IMG/VR virus record: IMGVR_UViG_2875722834_000006
DNA: 42,851 nt
From: a virus
Taxonomy: Duplodnaviria; Heunggongvirae; Uroviricota; Caudoviricetes
Direction: 5' to 3' (one strand)
The translations under genes and the position numbers were made by a program. Positions 22,068 to 33,154 of the stretch are shown in pieces. Positions within the stretch are counted from its first letter, which is position 1. Each line of letters begins with the position of its first letter. The notes below the pieces were generated by a model. That model ran no database searches. It was not told where the DNA came from and worked only from the letters and a program-made list of their open reading frames with translations.

Positions 22068-22721
22068 CTATCTGGCCGAGCTGATCGCCTCAGCAATCGC
22101 CTGGTGCAGCGCTGAGGGTAACAATGCGTTGGCCATGGTGTTTGCCCTGTCCATATAGCCGAGCGTTGGTTTGACTGGAAGCGCGTCTCCAAACCGAATA
22201 AGCAATTTTGGTGCAGGTTGCTTAATCTTGTCTCTGCGCGTGCCGTTCGGAGAACGTTTTGCCCGTTTCTTCCCTTTTTTGGTTTTCGGCTTTTTTCTCT
22301 GCCACACGGCATTCACGCCACCAACGTCACCAATAAATACGTTTGGCTTTGCTTTGAGCTGAGAGAGCTTATTACGCGGCAGGTTGCCGTATTTATTAAG
22401 CTTTATGTCTTTCGGGTTAAGCAAAGCACCACCATTAAGCTTGTGCGCTCCGCCGAACTCGAAGGGTTCAAGGTAGCCAGCAGCAGTATCACGAACAAAC
22501 ACCTTCGCACGAAGGCTGTTTTTCCTGGCACCAACTGACCCTACCGATTTAACTGTAAAAGGTGTTGGATTATCCAGATTCTGCTCAAATGCTGTTTTTT
22601 GGGCCGCTTCTATCTGGCGAACCACTTTAGTCATAGCCTGGGCAGTCGCAAACGGTATTTGCTTCTGCAGCTGTCTTAACTGACTGGAAAGGTCCTTAAG
22701 CGTTGCCATATCATTGACCAC
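22068..22721 (-). CDS. Hypothetical protein (217 aa) with Lys/Arg-rich segment
   Basis: ORF with AGGTGG RBS; located between lysis cassette and cos; no family recognised. Confidence 0.5.
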   Translation of the reverse strand: MVNDMATLKDLSSQLRQLQKQIPFATAQAMTKVVRQIEAAQKTAFEQNLDNPTPFTVKSVGSVGARKNSLRAKVFVRDTAAGYLEPFEFGGAHKLNGGALLNPKDIKLNKYGNLPRNKLSQLKAKPNVFIGDVGGVNAVWQRKKPKTKKGKKRAKRSPNGTRRDKIKQPAPKLLIRFGDALPVKPTLGYMDRANTMANALLPSALHQAIAEAISSAR

Positions 22722-22761
22722 CTAGTTACAGTAATTAAGATCAGTTTGCTCATAAAGTTGA

Positions 22762-22786
22762 CAATAAAAAACCGCCCGTAGGCGGT
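22762..22786 (-). terminator. Intrinsic terminator (ACCGCC-CGTA-GGCGGT plus U-tract on minus strand)
   Basis: Stem 22771-22776/22781-22786 followed by T-run on minus strand, overlapping stop of 22786..23190. Confidence 0.6.
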
Positions 22787-23190
22787 TAGTCGAACATTTT
22801 ATCAAGTTGCTTAGCAAGAGCTCGGTTAAACAGCTCCTTCGAAACTGTCATCAGCGTGCCCATACTGGCATCTTTGAATCCGGTTTTTAATGTTGCCCAA
22901 ACCTCTTTGTTACGGAGAGCATCCAAGAAGTCATGCCCCATCGCGGTCAATCGCAAGGGCATTACAGCCCAGTGAGTCATTCCGTCTAAAGACTGAATAG
23001 CACCAAAGCCGGGCTCTCCATCACTCCTGATAATCAGCCCTCTATCCTCAAGCAAACGCATATGAAACACAAATGTGTCAGTTTCACAATTGAACCCTAA
23101 ATCATTTAATCGAATAATATCGGTATCAGGTGAATCCGATGCCTCGAAAGCCTCGAGCAAACCTTTAAGGTATTCTTGATCTATTTGCAT
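22786..23190 (-). CDS. Hypothetical protein (134 aa), low-GC cargo-like gene (possibly DUF2513-like)
   Basis: ORF with about 37-40% GC in sampled stretch versus about 55-60% in structural genes; own terminator. Confidence 0.5.
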   Translation of the reverse strand: MQIDQEYLKGLLEAFEASDSPDTDIIRLNDLGFNCETDTFVFHMRLLEDRGLIIRSDGEPGFGAIQSLDGMTHWAVMPLRLTAMGHDFLDALRNKEVWATLKTGFKDASMGTLMTVSKELFNRALAKQLDKMFD

Positions 23191-24587: not shown

Positions 24588-25640
24588 TTATTCCCCTGTT
24601 AACGCCCTTATTTCCCCCACCGTCTGGCTAAACCTGTCCTTCTCGAGTTCAACGCCGATAGCCTGGCGGCCAAGTTCCAGCGCGATTTTCACGGTCGAAC
24701 CGGACCCCATAAAGAAATCAGCCACCACATCACCAGGCTTACTGCTGGCGTTGATGATCTGCCGCAACATGTCAGCGGGTTTTTCGCATGGGTGTTTACC
24801 TGGGTAAAACTGAACGGGTTTATGTGTCCAGACGTCGGTATAAGGAACGGATACGGAAACAGAGAAATGCCGCCGAAGCGATTTGTACTCTTCGAGCAGC
24901 TCTGAATACTTGCGATTTAACGAATGCCACATAGCCACCAGCTGGTGGTGTGGTGTTGCCAGTTCGCCGTTCTGGTGCTTTTCGATGGCTACCTGCGTGA
25001 AAAGGGACTGAAGCTTCCGGTAGTCTGATTCATTCGGTAATTGCCACTGGCTACCGCTGAACCAGTGAGACACCATGTTCTTCTTTCCAGTCGCATCGGC
25101 TATTTGTTTTGAGGTTATGCCAAGCGCTTCACGTGCATCCCGGAAATAAGAAATTAGGGGAGTCATTACATGCTGCTTCAGCTCGCTTCCCTTCTCAGCG
25201 TACCCGTCGCTCTTTGGTTTATACGGCCCCTGGTAATGCTCAGCGAACAGGATGCGCTCTGTTGCAGGGAAGTAAGAGCGCAGGCTCTCTTTATTACAGC
25301 CATTCCAGCGGCCCGACGGTTTAGCCCAGATGATGTGGTTCAGGACGTTGAACCGCTCACGCATCATGATCTCAATGTCTGCCGCCAGACGGTGACCTGA
25401 GAAAAGATAAAGACTGCCGGCAGGTTTAAGCACTCGCCAGAATTGTGCGAGGCACATATCAAGCCAGCGAAGATAATCCTCATCCCCTTTCCATTGATTG
25501 TCCCAGCCGTTGGGTTTCACTTTGAAGTACGGCGGATCCGTGACTATCAGGTCAATGAAGTTATCAGGGAGAGTTGCGATGTATTGCAGGCTATCAGCGT
25601 TGACTAACTCAACACTGTTTATATTTACAGTATTTTTCAT
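24588..25640 (-). CDS. DNA N6-adenine (or N4-cytosine) methyltransferase, beta class
   Basis: DPPY motif near N-terminus (VTDPPYF) and AdoMet motif FxGxG near C-terminus (DFFMGSGST). Confidence 0.8.
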   Translation of the reverse strand: MKNTVNINSVELVNADSLQYIATLPDNFIDLIVTDPPYFKVKPNGWDNQWKGDEDYLRWLDMCLAQFWRVLKPAGSLYLFSGHRLAADIEIMMRERFNVLNHIIWAKPSGRWNGCNKESLRSYFPATERILFAEHYQGPYKPKSDGYAEKGSELKQHVMTPLISYFRDAREALGITSKQIADATGKKNMVSHWFSGSQWQLPNESDYRKLQSLFTQVAIEKHQNGELATPHHQLVAMWHSLNRKYSELLEEYKSLRRHFSVSVSVPYTDVWTHKPVQFYPGKHPCEKPADMLRQIINASSKPGDVVADFFMGSGSTVKIALELGRQAIGVELEKDRFSQTVGEIRALTGE

Positions 25641-25810
25641 AGATCCGTAAGCGTAACTCTGATAGGCTCACTATGCTTTTGCGCTAAAGCAGTGGGCCTT
25701 GGTTAGCTTGTGACCTGTAAGCATGAGCTGATGGTTGGTCGGGTGCTACAACACCCACCAGCCGCCCATTCCACAGCAAAACTCCTCCATATTGAAGGAA
25801 CGAAGGCGTA

Positions 25811-25850
25811 AAAAAGCCCTGATTTTCAGGTCAGGGCATTTTTAATAAAA
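25811..25850 (-). terminator. Intrinsic terminator hairpin (GCCCTGA...TCAGGGC) with T/A runs on both sides
   Basis: Stem 25816-25822/25831-25837; minus-strand U-tract directly after stop of 25859..26758. Confidence 0.6.
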
Positions 25851-25858
25851 TCTGAAAT

Positions 25859-26758
25859 TTACGCGTTTCCAGGAGGGACATGCCAGACTCTTCGGCCATC
25901 CTCATGGTTCTCGATAATCTTGGCTGCTGTACTGCCACCAAAAGTGTGCATATAGCTATGATGTATCGTTAACACAATATCTTGTAATGCCTGATCTGCT
26001 TCCATCGGTATGATTTTCAAACCAATTTGGCTAGCTTTATCACTGTGAATATGACGTGCATGAGCAAAAGTTGAACTGTGGTTATTCAGGCTTGAACAAA
26101 TAGCTTCAGCCTTTTGCTGGGCATCTGGATCCCCATCAAACATACCAGTAATTAGCCATTCACTGACAATTGTTGTTGCCCATTGGATTGCCTTTTCACA
26201 CTCACCAATGAACGTCGGATTGAGTTTAGACAGTGTAAATTGCCAATACGCAGCAGTCGCAGGGTTTTTAATAATATCTTGCATAGCCTTCTGCGCTTCT
26301 TCAATCACGCCATGTGCTGGCACGCCACCGATTTGGGGATCGAAAGGACCGATATTTGATTGTTTCCCCATGATGATTTCTTTTGCACAACAAGCCAACA
26401 TAGTCCCTGCTGACATAGATATCATGGGGACAAAAGCACGGATATCGTTACCGAACTTAGCTCTCAAGTAATAACCTATCGATTCTAAGGCGGCGATATC
26501 CCCACCAGGTGTATGCAAAATGAGATCAAGCCCCTTCGTGGCATCGAGCCCATGAACCGCTGTCATGAATCCATTTTTATCATCATCAGACATAGTGCAT
26601 AAATGCGAGCTATTCTGAAGGAACCCCGAGTAGTACGCAATGACGTTACGTCCGGTCATCTGCGACATCTCTTTGATATATTTGCTTCTTACTGTGTCTA
26701 GGGGGCTTTTTTGGGCGAGGACTGCAACCTCGCCCATAACATGATTCCAATTAGGCAT
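25859..26758 (-). CDS. Clp-fold serine peptidase (SDH / S49-S14-like family), cargo gene
   Basis: LILHTPGGDIAA and MISMSAGTMLA motifs resemble ClpP/SppA fold; low GC; separate from head protease. Confidence 0.55.
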   Translation of the reverse strand: MPNWNHVMGEVAVLAQKSPLDTVRSKYIKEMSQMTGRNVIAYYSGFLQNSSHLCTMSDDDKNGFMTAVHGLDATKGLDLILHTPGGDIAALESIGYYLRAKFGNDIRAFVPMISMSAGTMLACCAKEIIMGKQSNIGPFDPQIGGVPAHGVIEEAQKAMQDIIKNPATAAYWQFTLSKLNPTFIGECEKAIQWATTIVSEWLITGMFDGDPDAQQKAEAICSSLNNHSSTFAHARHIHSDKASQIGLKIIPMEADQALQDIVLTIHHSYMHTFGGSTAAKIIENHEDGRRVWHVPPGNA

Positions 26759-26772
26759 TGTTCATCTTATTG

Positions 26773-26982
26773 TTAGTATGAATACAGTTGGTACGATGCA
26801 TTTCCTTGTTGATTGTAATCAACATTTTCCAGGTGAGAACCTGTCGAATAAATCACACCTTTTTGCCCAGAACCAACTGATGAGGTACTCATTACTCTGC
26901 GACCAAAATCAGTTGCTGTTTCGTTTGGCAAAAATTCTGCGGGGGTGATACCAAAATCGTCATAAAGCTGGTTTATGTTCAT
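26773..26982 (-). CDS. Small hypothetical protein (69 aa), translationally adjacent to peptidase
   Basis: ATG at 26982 with GGAGAG RBS; 14-nt gap to peptidase start; low GC. Confidence 0.4.
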   Translation of the reverse strand: MNINQLYDDFGITPAEFLPNETATDFGRRVMSTSSVGSGQKGVIYSTGSHLENVDYNQQGNASYQLYSY

Positions 26983-27064
26983 GGCTGCGCTCTCCAACAA
27001 ACTACATGTAGTAAAAAAACAACTTCGGCACACAACATGTAGATTTCACTAAGGGATAGATACG

Positions 27065-27086
27065 AAAAAACCTCCCAAGTGGAGGT
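27065..27086 (-). terminator. Intrinsic terminator (CCTCC-CAAGT-GGAGG plus U6 on minus strand)
   Basis: Stem 27071-27075/27081-27085 followed by TTTTTT on minus strand. Confidence 0.65.
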
Positions 27087-27292
27087 CAAGATTGCTTTAG
27101 TTATGCGCTAAATATGGTCTGAACATACGTTATATGCAATCTTTTTTGCACAGATTAGTGGTGTTTCTCGGAGATTTCTTGACTTTTTTTGTTGTAAGTG
27201 CAGCTTAACAACAAATTCCTATGAATGTATAAACAGTATCTTTTTATGTTGTTATGGTCGCCGGGTAATCCCATCCACTTAGTACGTGAAAA

Positions 27293-27318
27293 TGAAAAAC
27301 CCGCTCGCTGGCGGGTTT
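27293..27318 (-). terminator. tR'-like intrinsic terminator downstream of Q-like gene
   Basis: Stem CCCGC/GCGGG (27300-27304/27311-27315) with U-tract on minus strand about 100 nt after Q stop. Confidence 0.55.
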
Positions 27319-27410
27319 ATATACTCATGGCAACATATCAAATTAGCTTTAAATATCGCTTATTTTGTTGCATTTTGCAAGCCTGATTGAAGACGTTAGT
27401 GAAATTTACT

Positions 27411-28103
27411 TCACATTTCTACCACTTTCGCTTCTTCATACTCTTCGTACCGCGCCAGGCTTTCACATAACGCCACGCTGTCCATTTCCACGAAAGCTGC
27501 TTTAAATGCTGTCCAGTGAGCAGCGTATACCCTTAGCCAAGTTGAACGCTCCACGCTCACCATGCGGGCCAGTGCAGCCCCCGCATACTCCTGGTACGTA
27601 TCGTTATTGCGTGATGCCGCAACTTCCTGGGCCGCGAGCCAGACCAACCCCACTAATTTTTTTGTGACTCTGTCTTGGAGCTTCTTACTCCCCTGCTGAT
27701 GCTGAAACTGTGCCCAAACGTACTGGCACATTAACGTCTGGTACCGGAAAGACAGGTCATACCCATAGCAATACCTCACCCATGCCTGCAAATGCTCCCC
27801 CAGACCATTCACCGAACGACGCCATGCTGAACAAGCGAACTCCGTATCCTTAATAGGCGGTAAAGGTCGACGACGGCTCCTTGTCTCAAGAACATAAAGT
27901 GGAGTGGCCAGCGTTTTTACAACCTTGGATCCACAACCTTCCCCACCCTCCATGATGATTTCAGGATGGTGCCGGGGGTATTTGTTCTTATCTGCTGGTG
28001 GATGCTCACTGAACGCCTGCAGCTGTCCTTTTGTCGATCCTGATAAATCCGCCAGCGCGCGGCGCAGTTCAATCCGTGTAAATTCCAGTTCTTGTAAATT
28101 CAT
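27411..28103 (-). CDS. Late-gene antiterminator Q-like protein
   Basis: Position immediately upstream of promoter/terminator region preceding lysis genes; family assignment from memory of Q-family prophage proteins, not verified. Confidence 0.45.
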   Translation of the reverse strand: MNLQELEFTRIELRRALADLSGSTKGQLQAFSEHPPADKNKYPRHHPEIIMEGGEGCGSKVVKTLATPLYVLETRSRRRPLPPIKDTEFACSAWRRSVNGLGEHLQAWVRYCYGYDLSFRYQTLMCQYVWAQFQHQQGSKKLQDRVTKKLVGLVWLAAQEVAASRNNDTYQEYAGAALARMVSVERSTWLRVYAAHWTAFKAAFVEMDSVALCESLARYEEYEEAKVVEM

Positions 28104-28124
28104 TATGCTCAGCGCTCCATACAA

Positions 28125-29889: not shown

Positions 29890-31827
29890 TCAGGCGGCTG
29901 CACCCGCCTTTTGATTTGCACATAATTCAGGAAGATTTGCTTCTACCAGCGCACGAGCGAACGGCGGCGGTACTGCGTTACCACAGCGCGCTACCTGCTT
30001 GTCTTTGGCGTAACGATTGCCGCGATAGTCCTGATCGATAACGTAGCCGTCAGGGAAGCCCTGCGCCTTATAAAGCTCATGCGGTTGCAGCATGCGCATT
30101 CCGATATCGACGATCTGGTACTTAACCCCCTCGATCGTCACCAGCCATTCATCCTCGCTATCACCGCAGTAGGTTTCGAGGAATGTCCGGACCTCGCCAA
30201 CGTGCTGGCCACCAGCGGTAATCGTCGGCATAGGTGTATCCATGGTCTGACCGTCGCGGCAGGTTCCGCGCAGCTTCACCAGGTGCGACGCAACTACCGC
30301 GTGGTGATCAACAGTAGTGACTGAGTGGGCAGGCTCATCCATACCAACACCCGGCCCCGTGTAATTCCCACCATAGTGCTTCGCCAGGAACGCGCTCACC
30401 GTTGCAAACTTATTACCACCAGCAGTGACCGTGCCGAGCGGGTTATTCAGTTGAAGAACACGCGGTTCTTGCCCTGGGCGTTCGCCGTACCCCATCTGGA
30501 TCAGTGTTGGAGTTACCAGCTGCGACTTACCGCCACCACCTGCAGTAATCGTCGCACTCGGTTCGTCAGCCCTGTGCCCAACACTGGCTCCAAACTGGCG
30601 GGCGATGACCGGCGCAACCACGCACGCGCGGGACTGCTTGAGGATTGTATGAGCGGGTTTATCCAGCGGGCGCGGCTTTGCCTGGTACTCACTGCCGCCA
30701 TTGCCAGCCAGGAACGGTGTCAGGGCGGCCTCAACTACGCCAAGCGCATGCCCATTCCCGCCCGGGCGCGCCGACGTACCAGCGGTGACAGTTGGTACCG
30801 GCTCGGTCACTGGCTGCCCGGTGGCCCCGGTGCGGAATTTAGTAAGATGCGGTACCGCCAGTGCGTAGCCATGCTTTTTAGTGATGGTCTGCAATGGCTC
30901 TAACAACGATTGCCCGCGGAAACAGTCATAACCTCCTTTCGTCGTGGTGTGGTTACACTTCACGATGAAAGGTGATGCGCTTTCGATAACAAAGCGCTGG
31001 ATGCCGCGCGCGATACGTTTGAGCGTATTTTCCGCCAGCGGCTTTTTGCGGTCGAAGATGGACCGGGCCGGGATATTCCAGTCAATGCACTCCGCCGCGG
31101 TACGCCATGGCGCCAGCTTGCCGCTTTGTACTTCCAGTGATTTTGGATCCCCATGAGTCGCTTCAGGCCAATGAATCTTGCGGCCGTCACAGCGCATGAC
31201 CATGAAGAAACGCTTTCTGATCGTCGGCGCGCCGTAGTCACATGCGCGCAGCTCCCGATAATCAACCTCATAACCAAGCCCGGCGATCAGCTGTTGCGCC
31301 TGCTGGCCGTGCGGCTCAATGGCAAGGAATTCACAAACCTCAGCCAGCGCAGGGTGATTCGCCGCGATCCCCGTCGACAGCATGCCGACAAATGCCTCGA
31401 ATGTTTCGCCAGCACGCTCAGGATCTGGGCGTAATTCTTCATCCAGCAGCGGGCCCCATGTCTTAAACTCTTCGACGTTCTCCAGCATCATGACGCGGGG
31501 ACGTACTGCCAGCGCCCAGCGCAGGACAATCCACGCCAGCCCGCGAATCTCTTTCTTAACCGGCTTAGCGCCCTTCGCCTTGGAAAAGTGGCGGCAGTCA
31601 GGGCTAAACCAGGCCAGACCGACAGGTTTACCGCTGGTGGCTGCGCTTGGGTCAACGTCAAACACCGACTCGCAATAATGCAGCGTGTCAGGGTGATTCG
31701 TCTTATGCATCGCAATAGCGTTTTCGTCGTGGTTGATAGCGATATCCACGCTACGCCCGATCGCCAGTTCAATGCCGGTACTCGCGCCGCCGCCACCAGC
31801 AAAGTTATCAACGATAATTTCACGCAT
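29890..31827 (-). CDS. DNA (cytosine-5)-methyltransferase with extended, internally repeated variable region
   Basis: Motif I FAGGGG, PC motif (SPDCRHFS), ENV (MLENVEEF), motif VIII (YGAPTIRKRFFMV), motif X (GNAVPPP); four T(I/V)TAGG-containing modules between VIII and IX. Confidence 0.85.
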   Translation of the reverse strand: MREIIVDNFAGGGGASTGIELAIGRSVDIAINHDENAIAMHKTNHPDTLHYCESVFDVDPSAATSGKPVGLAWFSPDCRHFSKAKGAKPVKKEIRGLAWIVLRWALAVRPRVMMLENVEEFKTWGPLLDEELRPDPERAGETFEAFVGMLSTGIAANHPALAEVCEFLAIEPHGQQAQQLIAGLGYEVDYRELRACDYGAPTIRKRFFMVMRCDGRKIHWPEATHGDPKSLEVQSGKLAPWRTAAECIDWNIPARSIFDRKKPLAENTLKRIARGIQRFVIESASPFIVKCNHTTTKGGYDCFRGQSLLEPLQTITKKHGYALAVPHLTKFRTGATGQPVTEPVPTVTAGTSARPGGNGHALGVVEAALTPFLAGNGGSEYQAKPRPLDKPAHTILKQSRACVVAPVIARQFGASVGHRADEPSATITAGGGGKSQLVTPTLIQMGYGERPGQEPRVLQLNNPLGTVTAGGNKFATVSAFLAKHYGGNYTGPGVGMDEPAHSVTTVDHHAVVASHLVKLRGTCRDGQTMDTPMPTITAGGQHVGEVRTFLETYCGDSEDEWLVTIEGVKYQIVDIGMRMLQPHELYKAQGFPDGYVIDQDYRGNRYAKDKQVARCGNAVPPPFARALVEANLPELCANQKAGAAA

Positions 31828-33154
31828 TGACGGCCCCCTGCATGCTGTTGAAGAGACCACCAGCGGTCGTGATAATTTCACTCGTCGGCATACGTTCGAG
31901 CCACAGCTGGTTGATATTGGCTTTCAGCTTGTTCTGCTGCGAAACAGGTAGAGCGTCAGCCCCTTCAATCTGGTTAAACACCAGTCCAACCTCAAGAGGC
32001 CAAACGCGCGATTCGTTTAACGCCTTGTCCTTTGATTCCTGCGTCTCACGGACATGGGCGCGGATCCCCCGAATATTTGACCATTTGGCTTTATCCAGGC
32101 TTTCCATGGTCGCGATGAATTCACTGTGGTTAATGCCGTATTCTTTCGCAGACTCAACGGCAACCGTGCGTAACCGCTCTGACATGTCTTGTTTCACGTC
32201 ATCGCTATCAAAGGGCAATGTTTCCAGCCATGCATTAACACCCACCAGGATGCTCTCGCTGATCAGCTTTTTCGCTCTGTCGATCGTCAGCGGTGAAACA
32301 TTGGTAAATTCAGGGTTTTCCAGAGAGTCGGCAGCCCAGGTATGACCAAACTTTGACTCGCTGAAGGTGTACTCGTCTTTCTTGCCGAACGCCGCGACAA
32401 CACAGGCCCAAGCCTCTACACCGCTGGTTTCCAGAATGGCTTTTTGGGTTAATGGCAGTTCTGCCTCTGATTTCTCCGGCACTACCTCAGCGTCCAGCTC
32501 CGGCGCCGCATCAGTTTGCGTTCTTCCCACGGCAAATTGGGCCAGCGACATCGCAGCACGGCCTTTGGCCTCCAGGTCGGTGCGGTTGATGTAACTGAAA
32601 CGCTCACCCCGCCATGTTTTGTCGAAGACCACGATAGCGCCAGCAAAAAATGCGCTGGTGGGCTGCTGCTTTTCGTCTTTCGGCACGAACCATGTAGGAA
32701 GATCGAAACCAATTCGGCCACGGATGAATGTGACGTGATCTGCCTCTACCGGCCACCACGTTTCACTCGTCGCAGACTTAATGAGAAAAACGTACCGACC
32801 ACCCTTTTCTCGCATGGCCATAGCGTGGTTAATGATGTGGGTCATTCCGGTAACGGCCTGCTTGTCGTGGTACTGAGAGCGGCTGTAAGGCGGGTTGCCA
32901 AACCCGGCACCACCGAGTTCTGCCAGCCGCTCTGACCAATCCTGCATCAGGGCATTATCTTCAGCCGTGTACCATGCTGGGCACTTCGCGTTGCTGTCGT
33001 CGGCAAAAAGGTCCAACACCAGAGGGCCGAACATCGCATTGATCCCCCAAAACAACAGATCCGGAGTGCGCCATTGATCACCGACCTCTTTCAACTCGTG
33101 TGCTGGTTTTGAACGGAGTTCAGCCAGTGCACGGCAGTATTTATTTTCCATCAT
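31820..33154 (-). CDS. Phage-type DNA N6-adenine methyltransferase (Dam family) with about 250-aa C-terminal extension of unknown function
   Basis: N-terminal DQWRTPDLLF and NPPYS motifs characteristic of phage Dam family; long uncharacterised C-terminal half. Confidence 0.7.
   Translation of the reverse strand: MMENKYCRALAELRSKPAHELKEVGDQWRTPDLLFWGINAMFGPLVLDLFADDSNAKCPAWYTAEDNALMQDWSERLAELGGAGFGNPPYSRSQYHDKQAVTGMTHIINHAMAMREKGGRYVFLIKSATSETWWPVEADHVTFIRGRIGFDLPTWFVPKDEKQQPTSAFFAGAIVVFDKTWRGERFSYINRTDLEAKGRAAMSLAQFAVGRTQTDAAPELDAEVVPEKSEAELPLTQKAILETSGVEAWACVVAAFGKKDEYTFSESKFGHTWAADSLENPEFTNVSPLTIDRAKKLISESILVGVNAWLETLPFDSDDVKQDMSERLRTVAVESAKEYGINHSEFIATMESLDKAKWSNIRGIRAHVRETQESKDKALNESRVWPLEVGLVFNQIEGADALPVSQQNKLKANINQLWLERMPTSEIITTAGGLFNSMQGAVNA

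Follow-up and report, generated by a model that had tools for sequence, protein, structure and literature searches.

Among the closest described counterparts of the locus considered here are the morons found between the late antiterminator gene Q and the lysis genes, such as stx in Stx phages, which lie downstream of Q and of the late promoter with its terminator and upstream of the lysis genes, deviate in GC content, vary in presence among related phages and are transcribed in a Q-dependent manner at induction. In lambda biology, Q-modified RNA polymerase starting from pR' reads through intrinsic terminators. Here we analyse a two-gene cassette with these same properties in the IMG/VR virus record IMGVR_UViG_2875722834_000006, the whole stretch of which (42,851 nucleotides (nt), hereafter the window) is a complete Escherichia coli prophage, 100% identical to prophages of three RefSeq chromosomes, one of them from an ST536 mussel isolate. 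The cassette differs from the known Q-to-lysis morons in that its product is an intracellular protease with a small partner instead of a secreted toxin, in that it possesses its own upstream terminator and hairpin, and in that it is also found in other slots and in Mu-like phages.

A further point of comparison is the protease itself, which belongs to the SDH family (PF01972, NF047768; S49-related in MEROPS), a family whose name carries no tested function. The cassette protein resembles other members in passing the gathering score, in its ClpP/crotonase fold and, as far as chain order goes, in its conserved Ser, Asp and His residues, and differs from them in belonging to a phage subfamily with a helical C-terminal extension of about 120 amino acids (aa) and with invariant His, Arg, Lys and Glu residues of its own; the cassette also has a dedicated small upstream partner gene and a conserved leader. 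NfeD (PH1510-N) is a membrane-anchored protease with a Ser-Lys dyad, whose operon partner is the large SPFH protein stomatin. In contrast with this system, both cassette proteins are soluble, the partner is only 69 aa long and the conserved residues of the protease are Ser, Asp and His. By analogy, NfeD with stomatin, and SppA with its own C-terminus in the active site, may nevertheless serve as structural precedents for a relation between a protease and its partner.

Homology with prophages sharing the same backbone ends at about position 27289 and restarts at about 25781 (megablast), placing the borders of the cassette at ~25782 and ~27289. The resulting ~1.5 kb comprise, in order, a structured leader, the partner gene, the protease gene and a terminator. 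On the minus strand, the late genes and signals follow one another as Q, a terminator (27318..27297), an AT-rich stretch, a second terminator (27087..27069), the small open reading frame (ORF), the protease gene, a third terminator (25837..25816), a methyltransferase gene, holin, lysozyme and Rz, so that Q and tR' stand on one side of the cassette and the DNA methyltransferase with the lysis genes on the other. An earlier note on this DNA, made from the letters alone, had located the pair between Q and the lysis genes; this is correct as far as Q is concerned, with the qualification that the methyltransferase gene, which is kept in relatives without the pair, intervenes before the holin. The same note had described the pair as low in GC, and the deviation was recovered by exact computation: the small ORF has a GC of 0.395, the protease gene of 0.447 and the cassette (25782..27289) of 0.420, compared with 0.514 for the whole window (z = -2.8; fourth lowest among 827 sliding windows), and GC at third codon positions (GC3) is 0.33 and 0.42 for the two genes and 0.53-0.58 for their neighbours. 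The genes flanking the cassette have a GC of 0.50-0.54, and not the 55-60% that the note had given.

The stretch 25700..27400 is present as a whole in only 3 of 5426 complete E. coli genomes (megablast), other prophages showing homology at its ends only (25700..25781 and 27289..27400), whereas any allele of the pair is found in 80 of the 5426, including that of Nissle 1917. In a survey of 37 IMG/VR contigs carrying a close relative of the window's Q, together with ECONIH4 and CX21, the slot between Q and the methyltransferase gene was found in relatives to be either empty or occupied by one of eight other gene sets, and the same Q and methyltransferase flanks surround nine different slot contents. 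Variants among the 37 contigs include an empty slot (337 nt), a 63-aa gene, a pair encoding 251 and 134 aa, the SDH pair, transmembrane proteins and opposite-strand ORFs of 95-159 aa; in CX21 the slot contains only a 63-aa winged-helix protein. The Nissle 1917 allele has this backbone around it as well, the genes following one another as Q, pair (68-aa partner P0133 and 299-aa protease), 63-aa gene and methyltransferase gene (loci L111-L115 and L153), and, as over 1500 blocks of the assembly collection contain its partner sequence, it is a common allele. Variable presence at the same site, deviant base composition and a downstream terminator of its own are among the marks of a moron, and on these comparisons the pair is shown to be cargo, i.e., a moron cassette in a hypervariable slot, as the earlier note had supposed.

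Two other occupants of the slot are worth recording. Three alternating single-pass membrane proteins of 215-231 aa (L116, L120-L124 and L150), one of them with a DUF4760 domain (E 1.8e-24), look like candidate exclusion or abortive-infection proteins. The ECONIH4 slot (L002, 3495..4675; also L147) houses an unrelated pair of 251 and 134 aa that has neither a Pfam nor a PADLOC match, and the 134-aa protein looked HEPN-like by eye.

The larger gene of the cassette encodes a protein that scores 66.6 bits against PF01972 (SDH_protease) over residues 56-164, compared with a Pfam gathering score of 31.3, which agrees with the proposal of a Clp-fold serine peptidase in the earlier note; the motifs on which that proposal was based, HTPGGDIAA and MSMSAGT, are both present. 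Against NF047768 it reaches 85.7 bits over residues 18-250, under the equivalog cut-off of 250, and judged by these scores it is a divergent SDH subfamily and not the NF047768 equivalog. It also matches phrog_11747 (E 1e-106), which has no assigned function, and RefSeq already names it an SDH family Clp-fold serine proteinase. The annotation pipeline PGAP starts the protein at an internal methionine, M8 in the window and one further in for CX21. Since 23-62 homologues show hardly any variation in the N-terminus MPNW...E, M1 and not the M8 of RefSeq/PGAP is the right start; with M1 the gap between the two minus-strand, co-oriented ORFs is 14 nt, and the coordinates originally given for both of them are confirmed.

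Residues S116 (MSxGT), D140 (GPxDPQ) and H233/R235 (HxRH) are invariant in alignments of 23 and 62 sequences, as are H82 (HTPGG), H266/H267, K280 and E283. The chain order of S116, D140 and H233 fits the Ser, Asp, His triad which, going by the Pfam entry, we take to be the namesake of the SDH family, other invariant histidines being also present. An AlphaFold model was built with the 62-sequence alignment (mean predicted local distance difference test score (pLDDT) 90.8). The protein has the ClpP/crotonase fold, with the last ~120 residues forming a helical extension specific to the family, and among solved structures none was found nearer than ClpP or NfeD (E 4e-5 or weaker). The ratio of non-synonymous to synonymous substitution rates (dN/dS) is 0.01-0.04, indicating strong purifying selection. 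When the model (ma7ba9bda4572) was compared with BFVD, the best matches were giant-virus 'serine dehydrogenase proteinase' paralogues from Marseillevirus and Klosneuvirinae, several per genome, so that proteases of the SDH type are a recurring feature of both bacterial and eukaryotic viruses.

The small ORF has no Pfam family, and the evidence that it is a gene comes from its position and its evolution. All enterobacterial loci examined have an ORF of 64-70 aa finishing 2-14 nt ahead of the protease start. Of the 67 distinct upstream regions compared, 60 (90%) contain an ORF of 45 aa or more whose end falls between -33 and +100 nt from the protease start, as against 9.6% in shuffles and 15% on the opposite strand, and outside the enterobacterial/Aeromonas type the corresponding values are 81%, 10.7% and 25%. 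Within the window's type the dN/dS of the small ORF is 0.04-0.22, and its pairwise identities (mean 43%) correlate with those of the protease (mean 72%) at r = 0.90, from which it follows that both genes are inherited and diverge as a unit. Homologues of the window's type are few: one search grouped them into 33 clusters at 90% identity, and a second, covering 1.84 billion proteins, gave 22 representatives. All of them are stand-alone proteins of 63-94 aa, none has a Pfam family, and neither fusions nor other architectures were seen. Taken together, these comparisons show the small ORF to be a real, selected, protein-coding and stand-alone partner gene, in line with the earlier idea of a small partner. 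PGAP omits the 66-aa partner gene in CX21 (NZ_CP081762; L003, 993..2099), even though the partner is conserved.

Five residues of the partner are invariant (Y7, I12, Y45, Y67 and Y69), and its signature consists of a central [VR]-Y-S-x-[GS]-[ST] and a C-terminal L-Y-[ST]-Y. In the AlphaFold2 model two short N-terminal helices (pLDDT 80-85) are followed by a low-confidence C-terminal half; as the conserved motifs fall in this half, they sit in what is predicted to be a disordered tail, an arrangement that commonly marks a segment used in binding or recognition. In other lineages different small ORFs (the Pseudomonas FEAGFALLGL... type and others) hold the same position. That all of these form one homologous partner family was considered and rejected as unproven, hhalign giving a probability of 7.6% and the best real match in hidden Markov model (HMM) searches having an E of 0.025 compared with 0.064 for the best decoy, so that real and shuffled sequences are not separated.

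The leader is the third conserved part of the cassette. A terminator scan of the region returned 15 terminator-like sites, compared with 4.1 expected, and both of the bracketing terminators predicted earlier were found among them; the upstream one, however, belongs to the conserved leader of the cassette itself, and the tR' of the phage is a separate site. Upstream of the leader terminator lies a block of 95 nt starting at ~27183, and 26 nt past the terminator there follows an imperfect inverted repeat (arms 27042..27032 and 27012..27002) that stops 6 nt before the Shine-Dalgarno sequence GGAGAG (26995..26990). Across 20 homologous leaders the terminator helix is 88% paired, with changes on both sides in 5 of 7 pairs, and both helices are kept by compensatory change, 44 cells being altered on both sides in these diverged leaders when 18 are expected; the column pair 76/105 of the inverted repeat, for instance, is AU in 6, GC in 5, CG in 3 and UG in 2. 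This covariation was matched by none of 500 shuffles, and shifting the 3' partners by 1-3 columns lowers the pairing to 27-54%. The same architecture stands ahead of the pair in the copy between the lysis genes and terminase of CX21 and in a Mu-like Aeromonas prophage, and in L004, L010, L032 and L033 a hairpin with a T-run is located at the same place downstream, with diverged sequences. The leader is thus shown by these alignments to travel with the pair, including into other slots and into Mu-like phages.

The inverted repeat of the leader may either form a hairpin in the RNA or serve as a symmetric operator. A known RNA family was rejected, as no Rfam family matched the leader and its fold as a whole is not significant (z = -1.5). 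A promoter of its own, giving expression from the repressed prophage, would be a further mark of a moron; between the leader terminator and the ATG of the small ORF the promoter scan finds no sigma-70-like site, and AT-rich TATAGT-like elements occur inside the inverted repeat of some lineages and are not conserved. The terminator 27318..27297 belongs to the phage backbone because the border of the cassette (27289) falls just downstream of it, and from its position we read it as tR', so that the real pR'/tR' unit of the phage appears to consist of TTGCAA-N17-GATATT near 27385..27350 and this terminator. A similar element, TTGCAT-N17-CATATT, was seen by eye on the minus strand within 27100..27150, about 40 nt upstream of the leader terminator, resembling a miniature pR'/tR' unit; its -35 hexamer scores only 3/6, and it could be what is left of a late promoter picked up together with the cassette, or else represent a small RNA.

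Table 1. Features of the cassette and of its immediate context in the window.
Feature	Position	Strand	Evidence and remarks
Small partner gene, 69 aa, MNINQLYDDFGITPAEF...GVIYSTGS...YQLYSY	26773..26982	-	ATG at 26982; phrog_25714, E 3e-13
SDH-type ClpP-fold serine protease, 299 aa	25859..26758	-	PF01972 match
Leader, 5' block, non-coding, starts GTCAAGAAATCTCCGAG	27088..27183	-	Conserved among cassettes behind unrelated Q families (window, L004, L010, L033)
Leader intrinsic terminator: GACCTCC, loop, GGAGGTT, T-run	27063..27087 (helix 27087..27069)	-	Terminator scan and covariation
Imperfect inverted repeat / stem-loop: CTACATGTTGT, 19 nt, ACTACATGTAG	27002..27042	-	Co-variation of arms between lineages
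Cassette-closing intrinsic terminator: GCCCTGA, loop, TCAGGGC, T-run	25810..25837 (helix 25837..25816)	-	Terminator scan
Late antiterminator Q (context)	27411..28124	-	PF06323, E 1.7e-40; phrog_304; RefSeq annotation Q
tR'-like terminator of the phage, outside the cassette, ~95 nt downstream of Q	27297..27318	-	Terminator scan; segment common to backbone relatives without the pair
N6/N4 DNA methyltransferase (context, phage backbone), between cassette and holin	24588..25640	-	PF01555, E 1.5e-42; PADLOC MTase_II

Homologues of the protease are numerous: a search by words returned at least 8000 candidates, and among the matches listed all are of about 300 aa and at least 54% identical, originating from Enterobacterales, Pseudomonas, Aeromonas, Vibrio, Shewanella, Methylomonas and others. 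The family is present in 7 of 50,697 GenBank phage records (a Mu-like Shewanella phage, Porphyromonas phages and a Gordonia phage) and in 42 of 72,556 plasmid records, where close matches are restricted to replicons of ~43 kb, which we suspect to be phage-plasmids; in IMG/VR, 192 contigs carry a relative. The family spans Proteobacteria, Bacteroidota and Actinobacteria, and is almost confined to temperate phages.

The neighbours of the pair are equally diverse. Among 75 distinct upstream neighbours there are Q proteins of three families, PF06323 (10), PF06530/DUF1133 (10) and PF03589 (7), as well as one Mor and the host MutS, and the 78 distinct downstream neighbours include 14 integrases, at least 13 holins, the methyltransferase (5) and small terminases. 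In Mu-like prophages the pair follows the Mor/C-type late activator and precedes the lysis genes. E. coli CX21 has the backbone of the window and carries a different allele of the pair between Rz and terminase, and in Pseudomonas the pair is found between the host flank and the integrase, oriented towards the latter. The pair moves as a unit from one hot spot to another, and the cassette is best explained as a self-contained, horizontally mobile accessory operon.

Other genes of the prophages carrying the pair may be mentioned here. In the Mu-like Aeromonas prophage a gene with a TIR_2 domain (L109, 3784..4578), likely another conflict gene of the same prophage, is encoded on the opposite strand some 1.2 kb upstream of the SDH pair, where it is flanked by gemA and mor. 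A further prophage with the pair has, directly behind its lysis genes, a gene whose product contains an Acb2/Tad1-hairpin domain (L004, 8909..9193; PF24729, a family of anti-CBASS/anti-Thoeris sponges).

With regard to function, the reading that we favour, tentatively and at somewhat less than even confidence, is that of a mobile accessory operon encoding a partner-gated protease used in phage-host or phage-phage conflict and transcribed at least together with the late genes. Since the cassette is on the late strand, downstream of Q and pR'/tR' and ahead of the lysis genes, and since Q-modified polymerase ignores intrinsic terminators, the pair is expected to be transcribed at least on induction, as the first of the late genes. 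The partner would consist of a short helical N-terminus and a disordered C-terminal half bearing the GVxYSxG[ST] and LY[ST]Y motifs, and we propose that the protease binds these motifs, on its surface or within it, in the manner of a substrate or pseudo-substrate, its activity being gated or directed in this way. The active protease would then cleave proteins of the host or of a competitor. Our leading guess is that it protects the late phase of the induced phage (anti-defence or anti-competitor), either from host sensors that recognise late proteins or from competing elements, and takes no part in head assembly or lysis. The tight coupling of the two genes, their co-divergence and the predicted disordered, motif-bearing tail point to a direct relation between partner and protease, whether as substrate, pseudo-substrate inhibitor or adaptor, and the status of the pair as cargo, the hypervariability of its slot, its restriction to temperate phages and the purifying selection acting on it point to a function in conflict.

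Several results weigh against this reading. Neither the protease nor the partner matched PADLOC-DB v2.0.0 at E <= 0.1, nor does any other cargo of the slot match a known PADLOC defence gene, so that the conflict role is argued from position and variability alone. A full-text literature search yielded no paper on the function of the SDH phage family, and none of the solved structures matched assigns it one. The hhalign result and the decoy-limited HMM scores leave a single partner family unproven, with position alone conserved across lineages. Finally, the cassette-borne upstream terminator and the operator-like repeat suit an autonomous, autoregulated unit of the lysogen at least equally well. 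A known defence system was likewise rejected, PADLOC offering no match for either protein.

The main rival is a module resembling toxin-antitoxin (TA) or abortive-infection systems that would be expressed in the lysogen, with the protease as the toxin, neutralised by a labile small upstream protein which perhaps also represses the operon through the inverted repeat, until an incoming phage frees the protease. We regard this as doubtful, and yet a good deal of the evidence can be read in its favour. The gene order and sizes are those of type II TA systems, a small fast-evolving first gene being followed by an enzyme at gaps of 0-14 nt; the partner is predicted to be folded over a short N-terminal stretch and disordered in its C-terminal half; a co-varying inverted repeat stands just upstream of the operon; and the upstream terminator of the cassette shields it from phage transcription in all the contexts seen. 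Copies adjoining integrases at prophage edges are unable to depend on Q, and in the Porphyromonas phages the pair adjoins a HicAB module. With type II TA and protease-based abortive-infection modules (Xre/COG2856 pairs, Lit of prophage e14) the cassette thus has in common a two-gene operon, the nature of the first gene, the upstream repeat, the prophage location and possibly a proteolytic effector, but it shows no sequence or profile relation to them and has no match in PADLOC. Moreover, the family is nearly missing from the TA-rich plasmids (42 of 72,556 records, with close matches in ~43-kb replicons), the scan sees no promoter between terminator and ATG, and Q-modified polymerase would transcribe the pair of the window in any case, which is odd for a toxin that needs to be kept in balance. 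A classical plasmid-type addiction module was separately judged unlikely, close homologues being nearly absent from the 72,556 plasmids.

Two further explanations rank lower. The small protein may be a precursor which the protease cuts at the Tyr/Ser motifs, the product being a signal, toxin or inhibitor peptide that acts inside the cell or is released by lysis. The invariant GVxYSxG[ST] and the C-terminal LY[ST]Y are alike and both lie in the predicted disordered region, the active site of SppA binds its own C-terminus (4kwb), and late expression just before lysis would free such a product; however, the partner lacks a signal peptide and a transmembrane segment, the cassette encodes no receptor, exporter or modification gene, and the partners of other lineages do not demonstrably share the motif, all of which makes peptide maturation unlikely in our view. 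Least probable by far is that the pair is not cargo at all and instead assists in morphogenesis or lysis, as a second prohead or scaffold protease or as a lysis regulator. In its favour, the pair often adjoins lysis genes and the protease belongs to the same structural superfamily as the S49 prohead protease of the lambda gpC type, with weak matches to head-maturation profiles (phrog_53, E 1.4e-5; NF045542, 22.5 bits). The latter score is, however, far under its cut-off of 120, and the phage has an S49 head protease of its own (16422..17288; PF01343, E 1.6e-27), which adjoins the portal and scaffold genes 8.5 kb away from the cassette and is separate from the cassette protease, just as the earlier note had maintained. 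The pair is missing from close relatives whose Q, methyltransferase, lysis and head genes are those of the window, so that its protease is dispensable in them, and it is also found at prophage edges beside integrases; the statement that it is not an obvious structural gene can therefore stand.

Beyond the partner-gated conflict protease that we favour, a wider and more speculative proposal can be put forward, to which we give rather little credence at present: that the pair is the E. coli member of an unrecognised, phylum-spanning class of conflict systems, in which an SDH protease is switched on or aimed by a lineage-specific disordered mini-protein under its own terminator-plus-hairpin leader, is preferentially encoded by the first late gene, and would destroy either host immune sensors or effectors that respond to late structural proteins, or rivals such as satellites and co-induced prophages.

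Two features of the window outside the cassette complete the description. On the minus strand at 29890..33154 there are two more methyltransferases annotated by RefSeq, a 663-aa cytosine type and a 444-aa N6-adenine type, which brings the prophage, counting the gene at 24588..25640, to three DNA methyltransferases and hence to a heavy anti-restriction load. A second cargo slot is found on the same strand between Rz and the small terminase gene (22068..23190), where a 217-aa ORF and a 134-aa DUF2513 ORF, neither with a PADLOC match, coincide with a dip in GC to 0.455; the equivalent slot of E. coli CX21 houses the other allele of the SDH pair mentioned above.

In conclusion, the interpretation given in the earlier note is partly supported by these comparisons, its cargo, its peptidase and its partner all holding and its suggested defence, anti-defence, exclusion or toxin-like role being conjectural. 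The protease family is already named in databases and so is not categorically new. The literature search yielded no description of a partner and a conserved leader for SDH proteases, there is no mention of the pair in the Tai, Porphyromonas phage and Nissle papers, and as far as we have searched the module of leader, partner and protease and the rules of its placement are undescribed.

Proteases are rare among the characterised accessory genes of phages, and the SDH phage family has a name without a known biology. What was one odd prophage gene becomes a defined and testable module made up of a leader, a small partner and a protease, which is found repeatedly at the head of late operons controlled by three distinct regulatory systems and an allele of which, in the well-studied probiotic E. 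coli Nissle 1917, provides a ready experimental handle. Should the pair turn out to function in defence or anti-defence, a protease-based mechanism with a novel type of regulator would join those already known; a neutral pair would still be a clear-cut case of a cargo cassette moving from one hot spot to another.

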